Shown in pieces: positions 59,542-61,572 of a stretch of DNA of 64,000 nt. Under the pieces are notes generated by a model. The model was not told the origin of the DNA. It saw only the letters and a program-made list of their open reading frames with translations, and did no database searches. Numbering within the stretch: position 1 is the stretch's first letter; each line of letters begins with the position of its first letter. A program made the position numbers and the translations under genes. This stretch comes from an uncultured Mycoplasmatota bacterium. Its GTDB lineage: Bacteria > Bacillota_I > Bacilli_A > RF39 > UBA660. The stretch is taken from contig CALEBF010000004.1 of assembly GCA_937944975.1 (NCBI GenBank), positions 9,759 through 73,758 of the forward strand, read 5' to 3'.

Positions 59542-61572
59542 GTGAGAGAATCAAGAAAAGGATTTACACTCATTGAATTGATGGGAGTTATTGTCGTTAT
59601 GTCCATTATTCTTTTAGTTGGATTACCAACGATTAGTAATATGATGAAAAAGGATGTAGAGAGTACTTATGAACGGTATCTTGTCGAATTGTATGCGGCA
59701 AGTGAATCTTATTTTGTAGAAAATAAAGATTTTTATCCAGCACTCGCTGCCCCTGGAGGACAGGCTTATGTTACGATTGATGAACTTATGAGTGAGGGAT
59801 ATATTCGAAACGTCGTAACGGACCCGGAAACGAATGAAGATTTACCGATCGAGACACAAGTAGAAGTGACCGTCAACGCTGATTACACTTATTCTTTCCA
59901 AATTAAGAAAGGAAATAATCAGAGTATTTTAGTTTTGTTGGATGCGAATGGAGGAAGTGTCACTCCATCATCGTTAGCACGAACATATAAAGCGAAATAC
60001 GGCGAACTTCCAACACCGACGCGAAGTGGATATATATTCTTAGGATGGTTCACTGAAAAAACGGGTGGAGAACAAGTGAGTGCTGATCAACGTATTACGA
60101 TTTCGAGAAATCATACGCTGTATGCACATTGGCAAGCAAAGACCCCAACAGTAAGTTTTGATGCGAATGGAGGAAGTGCTGTTACGAAGACAATGACAGT
60201 AACAGTCGGAAAACCGTATGGAGAACTTCCGACGACGACGAGAAAAGGATATACCTTCCTCGGATGGTATACTGCAAAAAGTGGTGGTTCTCTCATTACA
60301 AAGGATACAAATGTAAAAAATGGAGATAATCACACATTATATGCACAGTGGAAACAGAATAAGTATATTGTTACATTTAATGCAAACGGAGGAAGTGTCA
60401 ATCCAACGACGAAAGAAGTTACACAATATAATACGTATGGAGAACTTCCAACACCGACACGAAGTGGGTATACATTTAATGGATGGTTTACAGCGACAAC
60501 TGGAGGAACAAAAATTACATCTACAACAGAAGTGACGATTACAGCGAATCAGACGTTGTATGCACAATGGACGATCAATCAGTATACTTTAACGTATAAT
60601 GCAAACGGAGGAAGTGTTAGTCCAACAAGTAAAAAGGTAACTGTAGGGGCAACATACGGAACGCTTCCAACACCAACAAGATCAAATCATAGATTCTTAG
60701 GATGGTATACCTCTGCAAGTGGAGGAACGCAAGTCTCAAGTTCAACCGTGATGCCAGCATCGAACGTAACAATTTATGCGCATTGGCAAGCAACAACGAC
60801 AATTACATTTAAAAACGATATGACAGGAGCTACGCAATCTAGTACGATCGACGTAGGAAAGACGGTAGCCGCACCTAATTATACAGCAACAGGATATACG
60901 AGAACCGGTTGGGAAAGTAGTAACACAGCAATTGCCACAGTAAGTGGAAATACGATTACGGCAAAATCAGCAGGAAGTGCTACAATTACGACGAAATGGT
61001 CATTGAATGCCCCAACGGTATCTGGACAGTCGACAAGTTGGACGTACAACGCGAGAACATTGACGCCATCTTGTGCAGGAAAGGCATATCGAACGATGAC
61101 ATACCAATATAGTACAAATGGAGGAAGTACATGGACTACTGCTTCTTCTAAAGCATTTACACAAAATAAGACAGTACAATGGAGATGTTATGACAACAAT
61201 GGACGTTATTCTGCAGCGACGACTGCAAATGTATATGCAGACACATCTTCGCCGGGAACAAATTGGTCTCAAAATAGTTCTACTTATGCTGTAACTGGAA
61301 CTTCCAAAGGATGTAGCTCTCTTGGTACACATCAAATTGTCTATACCGGATCGTATGCATGGCGTAACAGCTGGGAATCTGGAAAAGCTAATTATGCCAA
61401 TTACTTCATGTACTGTAATGGAGGAGCGACAGGAAAATTTACTTCTATCAAATGGAGTAATAATTGTCAAAAAGCAGTATTTCAACCTAGTTTAAGTGCA
61501 TGGTATGAATGGTGGGGAAAACAACAGACGAAGTGTGTTCATACCGGAAAAACGCATACATGGCAACAGTAG
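59542..61572 (+). CDS. Modular type IV (pseudo)pilin-like protein: prepilin signal, pilin head, 5 Listeria-Bacteroides (Flg_new)-type repeats, Cys/Trp-rich C-terminal domain
   Basis: MRESRKG|FTLIELMGVIVVMSIILLVGLP is a class III signal peptide with Glu at +5. Five 73-aa units carry NANGGSV...YG(E/T)LPTPTR(S/K)GY(T/I)F(L/N)GW(F/Y)T...G...TLYA(Q/H)W. The C-terminal 185 aa hold 6 Cys and many Trp/Tyr. Confidence 0.8.
   Translation: MRESRKGFTLIELMGVIVVMSIILLVGLPTISNMMKKDVESTYERYLVELYAASESYFVENKDFYPALAAPGGQAYVTIDELMSEGYIRNVVTDPETNEDLPIETQVEVTVNADYTYSFQIKKGNNQSILVLLDANGGSVTPSSLARTYKAKYGELPTPTRSGYIFLGWFTEKTGGEQVSADQRITISRNHTLYAHWQAKTPTVSFDANGGSAVTKTMTVTVGKPYGELPTTTRKGYTFLGWYTAKSGGSLITKDTNVKNGDNHTLYAQWKQNKYIVTFNANGGSVNPTTKEVTQYNTYGELPTPTRSGYTFNGWFTATTGGTKITSTTEVTITANQTLYAQWTINQYTLTYNANGGSVSPTSKKVTVGATYGTLPTPTRSNHRFLGWYTSASGGTQVSSSTVMPASNVTIYAHWQATTTITFKNDMTGATQSSTIDVGKTVAAPNYTATGYTRTGWESSNTAIATVSGNTITAKSAGSATITTKWSLNAPTVSGQSTSWTYNARTLTPSCAGKAYRTMTYQYSTNGGSTWTTASSKAFTQNKTVQWRCYDNNGRYSAATTANVYADTSSPGTNWSQNSSTYAVTGTSKGCSSLGTHQIVYTGSYAWRNSWESGKANYANYFMYCNGGATGKFTSIKWSNNCQKAVFQPSLSAWYEWWGKQQTKCVHTGKTHTWQQ
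59923..61017 (+). repeat. Five in-register 219-bp (73-codon) intragenic tandem repeats
   Basis: The GC(G/A)AA(T/C)GGAGGAAGTG strings recur at 59944, 60163, 60382 and 60601, an exact 219-nt period. GAACTTCCAACACCGAC(G/A)CGAAGTGG(A/G)TAT recurs at 60004 and 60442. The fifth unit is degenerate but stays in register. Confidence 0.85.

Follow-up and report, generated by a model that had tools for sequence, protein, structure and literature searches.

A predicted modular prepilin with an InlB B-repeat stalk and an exchangeable, lineage-restricted tip in an uncultured RF39-like gut bacterium

Raynaud et al. 2021 defined modular pilins, which combine a prepilin N-terminus (IPR012902) with a domain that is not pilus-specific, and in their survey counted 1219 such proteins in 264 architectures (PMC8179133). 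Among them, Streptococcus sanguinis PilB is an established adhesin, with a mechanism shown by experiment (PMC8179133). Here, we describe a gene from an uncultured Mycoplasmatota bacterium that encodes a 676-residue protein fitting this definition, with an N_methyl prepilin N-terminus followed by Flg_new repeats. The DNA that was analyzed is a stretch of 64,000 nucleotides (nt), referred to below as the window, and the gene is a complete open reading frame (ORF) at 59542..61572, with a GTG start, 676 codons and a stop codon. The gene, its parts, the regulatory elements just upstream and the two genes directly downstream all lie on the forward strand. We consider it somewhat more probable than its alternatives taken together, at about 0.55, that the product is a modular type IV pilin, acting as an adhesin subunit on a type IV filament.

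The best comparison is with PilB and PilC of S. sanguinis, which carry a von Willebrand factor A (vWA) module and a lectin module, respectively (PMC8179133; PMC9934059). These proteins and the one described here share a monoderm host, a class III signal peptide, a small pilin module followed by a C-terminal functional module, and a presumed role in adhesion. The PilB and PilC genes stand in a pil locus that also encodes the assembly machinery, and experiments have established what they do, whereas the present gene is an orphan. In addition, PilB and PilC each have one bulky module, whereas the present protein has a multi-domain stalk and a tip of no known family. The minor pilin CofB of the type IVb pilus of enterotoxigenic Escherichia coli is also similar in that a pilin module is followed by β-repeat and β-sandwich domains, and CofB, which acts as a binding adapter, has the tip of the pilus as its predicted location (PMC8179133). 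CofB differs in coming from a diderm, in belonging to a type IVb pilus, in being encoded in a pilus operon, and in having a sequence unrelated to the stalk and tip considered here.

The stalk itself has a counterpart outside the pilins. Internalin B of Listeria monocytogenes (2y5p) contains the repeat of which our protein has four copies of the same family and fold, but our protein lacks the leucine-rich repeat (LRR) internalin domain, the Sec signal peptide, and the GW or LPXTG anchor, and it is not an internalin. With the internalin exception models, alignment was confined to the B-repeat parts, which scored 147 and 115 bits where the cut-offs are 1050 and 1600, respectively, and no LRR family was found. 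A further parallel is the “bindosome” of Sulfolobus, in which class III signal peptides occur on diverse, sugar-binding surface proteins whose genes are scattered in the genome. This archaeal system works with the PibD peptidase and with Bas for assembly, and it is not known to have a conserved Glu+5.

The combination of a pilin N-terminus with the InlB-like B-repeat (IPR013378) was catalogued in 2021. Dataset S1 of Raynaud et al. lists the IPR012902–IPR013378 architecture with one repeat in 1 protein, two repeats in 9, three repeats in 2, and five repeats in 1, as well as four mixed architectures (PMC8179133). These proteins, the five-repeat entry included, belong to the same architecture class as ours; the dataset gives architectures but no description of single proteins, hosts, tips, or genomic surroundings. 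An initial reading of the window made without database searches (the sequence-only reading) had taken this repeat class to be new on pilins, which the dataset contradicts, and had proposed S. sanguinis as the appropriate comparison, which is supported both by PilB and PilC and by the PilE1 match described below. As far as literature searches showed, three things are new here, since no account of any of them was found: the tip domain, the swapping of tip cassettes among pilins with different heads, and the apparent abundance of dispersed modular prepilins in RF39-like bacteria. Searches for RF39 in connection with pili or competence likewise found nothing relevant.

The pilin head and the B-repeat stalk

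The protein starts with a basic class III leader peptide of 7 residues, MRESRKG (59542..59562), that ends in Gly-1. With the residues that follow (MRESRKG/FTLIELMGVIVVMSIILLVGLP, where the slash marks the predicted cleavage site), it provides the Gly-1, Phe+1, and Glu+5 expected of a prepilin. Both models of the pilin N-terminus scored above their cut-offs, namely Pfam N_methyl (PF07963; 26.7 bits vs 21.2) and TIGR02532 (22.4 bits vs 16.3). The leader is followed by a hydrophobic α1-N segment, FTLIELMGVIVVMSIILLVGLPTISN (59563..59640), containing Phe+1, Glu+5, and Pro22, which is conserved and is predicted by AlphaFold2 (AF2) to be helical. In an alignment of 20 head homologues with a mean identity of 33%, the invariant residues are G7 (Gly-1), F8 (Phe+1), T9 (Thr+2), L10 (Leu+3), E12 (Glu+5), L13 (Leu+6), V16 (Val+9), and P29 (Pro+22).

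The globular part of the head comprises residues 34–128 (59641..59925). Searches with the first 128 residues gave 4 matches in a word-indexed search and 7684 in an alignment-based search. The best matches of the head (about 120 residues) are stand-alone pilins of 115 to 135 residues that align over approximately 90% of its length, such as P0166 (134 residues, 64% identity) and P0168 (122 residues, 33% identity); some sources label stand-alone proteins of this family PilA or type II secretion system protein. When a profile of the head family was run against the PDB, 20 of the 21 matches were type IV pilins or pseudopilins, and the best of these was S. sanguinis PilE1 (8pfb; E = 2.9e-11, profile positions 5–82 of 123). 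The AF2 model of the head alone shows a helix over residues 10–60 followed by three to four β-strands, with a predicted local distance difference test score (pLDDT) of 83. Models of competence and type II secretion pseudopilins (ComGC, ComGD, ComGE, ComGF, GspG, and GspH) reached 14 to 27 bits against cut-offs of 49 to 89. Based on these profiles and homologues, the protein is a member of the pilin sequence family. Hence, the prepilin-type N-terminus with Gly-1, Phe+1, and Glu+5 and the pilin-like globular head proposed in the sequence-only reading were both borne out at the level of sequence, as was the size of 676 residues. The ORF begins at the first start codon (GTG) past an in-frame TAG, and the same product is called identically in public metagenome annotation on at least 15 contigs.

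Flg_new (PF09479) matched the whole protein in five stretches (E = 9e-74), in keeping with the five units that had been counted at first. Scanned unit by unit, four canonical InlB B-repeats (residues 129–200, 201–273, 274–346, and 347–416; 59926..60789) scored 64 to 76 bits each against a cut-off of 27. The fifth unit (residues 417–492; 60790..61017) is a degenerate β-domain with a Flg_new-like front half and a Big_2-like tail; taken alone, it gave no Flg_new match at E ≤ 0.1 and a Big_2 score of 18.2 bits, below the cut-off, so that four of the five units stand as Flg_new repeats. All five domains were modeled by AF2 with good confidence (pLDDT 85–93; 87–92 for the fifth), and Foldseek matched the repeats to the InlB B-repeat in 2y5p (TMt, a template modeling (TM) score, of 0.83; root mean square deviation of 2.0). 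B-repeat proteins dominate the Foldseek matches of the full model, which is uninformative on the head. Taken together, profile scores and predicted fold identify the four stalk units as true InlB B-repeats. A search for tandem repeats in the DNA returned nothing from this region, and the B-repeats are 65 to 69% identical in DNA, which suggests old duplications rather than a slippage-prone array.

The gene has its own promoter. A terminator-like hairpin (59445..59464) closes the upstream gene for a DUF87/HerA-like ATPase and thereby marks the pilin gene as a transcription unit of its own. It is followed by a sigma-70-type promoter, TTGACA–17 nt–TATACT (59473..59501), which agrees with the consensus at 11 of 12 positions, lies approximately 40 nt 5′ of the GTG start, and is the top-scoring site across the scanned 7-kb region; the strong promoter noted initially was thus confirmed. 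No terminator was predicted between 59500 and 64000, and the next gene begins 16 nt past the pilin stop codon; because of these two features, the pilin gene is probably cotranscribed with the two genes that follow, which encode proteins of 276 and 175 residues. The domain architecture, the separate promoter, and the rarity of the tip described in the next section are direct observations.

The tip and its exchange between pilin genes

The C-terminal 184 residues, at first taken to be a single domain of 185, consist of two parts. The first is an Ig-like unit (residues 493–578; 61018..61275) with an Asp-box-like motif, YSTNGGSTW, for which we obtained weak matches to CHB_HEX_C and Reelin-B and an AF2 model of low confidence. 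The second is a terminal Cys/Trp-rich domain of 98 residues (residues 579–676; 61276..61569) that contains 4 Cys and 7 Trp and matched no Pfam family; it is presumed to be the tip that binds a ligand. An exhaustive HMMER search with residues 496–676 against 1.84 billion representative proteins separated the two. The Ig-like unit recurs many times in giant surface proteins, and the terminal 98 residues were matched in one other cluster only, P0286. This is an 1846-residue prepilin with a different head (MKVNRRG/FTLIEIL...) and a stalk made of an extended series of Ig-like, fn3-like, and Y_Y_Y-type repeats and one Flg_new repeat, after which comes the same tail, with the tip at its C-terminus. 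By these matches, the tip is restricted to the lineage and, as far as seen, always stands at the distal end of a pilin-headed stalk.

Comparison with related contigs indicated how such tails may be acquired. Positions 60577–62204 of the window run from the last canonical repeat through the tail domains and the intergenic spacer into the gene for the 276-residue protein, most of which they cover. This DNA shows 94% identity to the end of another pilin gene and the gene after it. That pilin, P0037, is a 986-residue prepilin with a different head and stalk, encoded after topA on contig L011. The junction of the 94% identity coincides with the domain boundary at residues 346/347. The alignment thus establishes, at the level of the DNA, a cassette exchange between pilin genes with different heads.

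Strain variants of the locus differ in the same part of the gene. In one of them (L014), the sequence diverges from 60746 to 62466, and its pilin (P0005) ends in extra repeats and a different, aromatic-rich β-type domain. In another (L007, pilin P0003), the Ig-like unit alone is replaced. The head is nearly unchanged across the window gene, P0005, and P0003, and the pattern seen in these alignments is one of a conserved carrier with swappable display modules. Recombination at repeat boundaries swaps the tip module together with the downstream gene, from strain to strain as well as among pilin genes that differ in their heads, and such tip swapping would create variation in binding or antigenicity.

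The downstream gene (61588..62418) encodes a single-pass membrane protein of 276 residues, anchored by its N-terminus and exposing a large domain on the outside, without an above-cut-off match in Pfam, the sole library scanned. Its presence tracks the tip type: genes of this type stand at 61588–62418 in the window and at 8070–8684 of L011, in each case following a pilin gene with this tip, although the heads of the two pilins differ. The window gene counts here together with its strain variant L007, and the gene for the 276-residue protein is missing in L014, where the tip is a different one.

Filament subunit or anchored surface protein

The mechanism that we consider best supported is modeled on S. 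sanguinis PilB. By this analogy, the α1-N helix would insert the protein into the membrane, prepilin peptidase would cut after Gly7, and the pilin head would admit the protein to a type IV filament as a low-abundance, probably tip-located subunit. The filament would hold the stalk and tip off the cell for ligand binding, with the rod of β-domains serving as a spacer and the Trp/Cys-rich tip as the binding site. The richness of the tip in Trp suggests that the ligand would most plausibly be a glycan, either from the mucus of the host or from a different microbe. Cleavage by the peptidase, incorporation into the filament, and adhesion are all proposed on the PilB model.

To see how heads of this family are used elsewhere, species-representative genomes were scanned with the head alignment, which gave at least 80 loci. 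At least 71 of the listed loci (1.02 Mb, median guanine + cytosine (GC) content 28%) come from metagenome-assembled genomes (MAGs) of uncultured gut Bacilli, “Tenericutes,” or Mycoplasmatota. These 71 listed loci contain at least 107 prepilin ORFs, all with Phe+1; as the ORFs were picked by motif, the counts are biased, and this and the following figures apply among the matches listed. Fifty-five of the 107 are at most 200 residues long, 26 measure 200 to 400 residues, and 26 exceed 400, with a maximum of 1413. The 48 longest contain Bact_surface_Ig-like, DUF285, BspA-type LRR_5, Flg_new, DUF6273, dockerin, and Fib_succ_major modules, and many are without a known domain. Homologues of the assembly proteins were sought by jackhmmer with Brevibacillus PilB, PilT, PilC, PilD, and PilM as queries in every ORF of 99 loci and of the window, and the matches were confined to 7 loci, all outside the RF39-like group. 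Accordingly, assembly genes stand beside the pilin in seven of nine listed loci from other bacteria. Head-family pilins adjoin pilus-assembly genes in cultured Bacillales and a few other genomes, with pilB, pilT, pilC, pilD, and pilM beside them in Paenibacillus, Brevibacillus, Carnobacterium, and a Bacillaceae isolate.

Several results weigh against a filament-borne adhesin. No gene with T2SSE, T2SSF, or Peptidase_A24 was found in the 64-kb window or in approximately 8 kb past its right end, where Pfam annotation returned housekeeping and sporulation genes only; over this span, the initial remark that the gene lies away from any pilus machinery was correct. Likewise, none of the 71 listed MAG loci had a PilB, PilT, PilC, PilD, or PilM homologue within 10 kb, and the same holds for each of the 107 listed prepilins. 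When the head model was compared with the PDB by Foldseek, no match was significant, and 3sok came closest among the pilins (E = 1.6, TM score 0.29), probably because of the long exposed helix, most solved pilins being truncated. Finally, the AF2 prediction for the C-terminal 110 residues had a pLDDT below 30, a failure explained by the fact that the homologues of the tip are near-identical only, so that ligand binding has to be argued from the composition and position of this domain.

The absence of nearby machinery is also what would be expected of a second explanation, to which we give appreciable though distinctly lower weight, namely that of a surface protein which is anchored by its pilin part and never polymerized. 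In that case, the N-terminus, cleaved or not, would serve as export signal and membrane anchor, and the stalk, approximately 25 nm long as estimated from domain sizes, would span the wall; the arrangement would amount to general surface display in RF39-like Bacilli, similar to the use that archaea make of class III signal peptides for sugar-binding proteins. This would account for the scattering of the 107 prepilin genes among housekeeping genes in the 71 listed MAG loci and for the large sizes of many products, 52 being longer than 200 residues and 26 longer than 400. It would also fit with the modules on these prepilins, which are ordinary surface-protein types (Bact_surface_Ig-like, BspA LRR_5, DUF285, Flg_new, dockerin, and Fib_succ_major), and with the occurrence of the same tip on proteins of widely varying length, from 676 to 1846 residues. 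However, a plain anchor would have no need of an invariant Gly-1 and Glu+5 or of a conserved head, features that point to processing and subunit packing, and the same lineage has stand-alone small pilins of the same family, which make sense mainly as filament subunits. Moreover, the approximately 1 Mb that was sampled is too small to show that machinery is absent, as about one cluster would be expected per genome of 1 to 2 Mb. For these reasons, we favor the filament-borne adhesin.

Five prepilin genes that were checked singly (P0037, P0082, P0168, P0248, and P0229) all lie among housekeeping genes. Small prepilins also occur in sets. An uncultured Bacilli MAG (L032:4700–10400) has five tandem prepilin genes encoding about 145 residues each and a sixth, of 108 residues, approximately 3 kb downstream, and this 15.8-kb locus contains no assembly gene. 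Comparable small sets in tandem were seen in L086, L087, L030, L026, L037, and L081.

A broader proposition, which goes beyond the single gene and which we regard as speculative, is that RF39-like gut Bacilli, with their reduced genomes, use the pilin head as a general export and display device for their surface proteome. In such a system, dozens of dispersed, independently transcribed prepilin genes with stalks and tips swapped as cassettes across different heads would be displayed in a way that is uncoupled from, or takes place without, a canonical type IV pilus machine. If true, pilin-head display in RF39-like Bacilli would be the bacterial counterpart of the archaeal bindosome.

Two further explanations concern the neighboring genes. 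A polymorphic effector, in which the variable C-terminus is a toxin or enzyme carried on the stalk and the 276-residue membrane protein its immunity protein or partner, would be consistent with the conserved N-terminal part and strain-variable C-terminus and with the joint gain and loss of tip type and 276-residue gene, which are paired at two different pilin genes. We consider it improbable, as the tip matches no toxin family, nor any other, as there is no immunity family among the above-cut-off matches of the 276-residue protein in Pfam, and as both the small Cys/Trp-rich tip and the aromatic-rich β-type tip of P0005 look more like binding modules; the co-inheritance could merely mirror the positions of the recombination breakpoints. 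Least likely of all, and barely credible, is a minor pseudopilin of a competence (Com) pilus or a partner of the neighboring DUF87/HerA-like ATPase, for although ComGC (26.8 bits) and GspH (24 bits) gave weak matches at the N-terminus and the ATPase gene lies directly upstream in all strain variants, the ComGC, GspH, and GspG scores are far under curated cut-offs of 75 to 89 bits, no comGA, comGB, or gsp gene was found near the pilin gene, a terminator and a separate promoter intervene between the ATPase and pilin genes, and DUF87 occurs in one of the 71 listed prepilin loci, where it is merely syntenic, approximately 2 kb off and with other genes between.

Genomic setting and meaning for RF39-like bacteria

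The order of genes around the pilin gene is ftsY, a gene for an 88-residue protein, ylxM, the DUF87/HerA-like ATPase gene, the pilin gene, the genes for the 276-residue membrane protein, a 175-residue protein, and a 372-residue protein, and the pyruvate kinase gene. The 175-residue protein (62453..62980) has a possible lipoprotein-like N-terminus (...LIATAC/GS) and is kept in all strain variants. The ATPase (590 residues; 57684–59456) has an N-terminal barrel-like region and is encoded directly after ylxM, a gene usually followed by ffh. No NurA or other partner gene was evident. The ATPase gene keeps this position in the strain variants, as it does in one of the related MAGs, L097. We considered a functional link with the pilin gene and rejected it because of the terminator, the pilin gene's own promoter, and the single syntenic case mentioned above. 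Upstream of ftsY (54837–56082) are two adjacent genes for proteins of about 200 residues that match no Pfam family and are also kept in all strain variants.

Two other proteins were seen at or near this locus. Approximately 7 kb downstream of the pilin gene, outside the window (L001:19149–19997), lies a gene for a 282-residue protein with a Laminin_G_3 lectin domain. Its N-terminus, MKLFHLDNKG/FAMAGVVYPLLV (...NKG/FAMAG...), is prepilin-like, without Glu+5, and the protein may be a second modular pilin, of the minor type, in this neighborhood. In a related species (L017:1–1617, on a 1.37-Mb contig), a 987-residue protein that has PKD and Y_Y_Y-type domains, the N-terminus of which lies past the edge of the locus, is encoded upstream of pyruvate kinase. 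As it occupies roughly the position of the pilin gene, it suggests that the locus holds differing large surface or pilin proteins from species to species.

The window has a GC content of 34%, and neighboring proteins share 90%-identity clusters with proteins named Candidatus Fimihabitans intestinipullorum. Candidatus Fimihabitans corresponds to UMGS1648, family CAG-822, order RF39 in GTDB and is placed in Mycoplasmatota incertae sedis by NCBI. Many sporulation genes lie between 21000 and 47000, including those for SpoIVA (44685–46160), YabP, SpoVG, YunB, and SpoVIF, along with genes for penicillin-binding proteins and FtsW. Sporulation is usually lost in reduced Firmicutes (PMC12306168). The presence of these genes in an RF39/CAG-822-like reduced genome is notable for a genus filed by NCBI under Mycoplasmatota.

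Uncultured RF39 bacteria, whose genomes are small, are common in the gut of humans and animals, and they raise the question of how they attach to host, mucus, or partner microbes. The protein described here and its relatives are the clearest candidates for RF39 surface adhesins, and they extend the idea of the modular pilin to a lineage in which such genes appear to be unusually numerous, dispersed, and recombining. Its orphan Cys/Trp-rich tip offers a small, defined target for binding studies. If the lineage should prove to be without pilus machinery, the prepilin signals would have been put to a new use in bacteria. The gene provides a way into the surface-protein display of uncultured RF39 gut bacteria.

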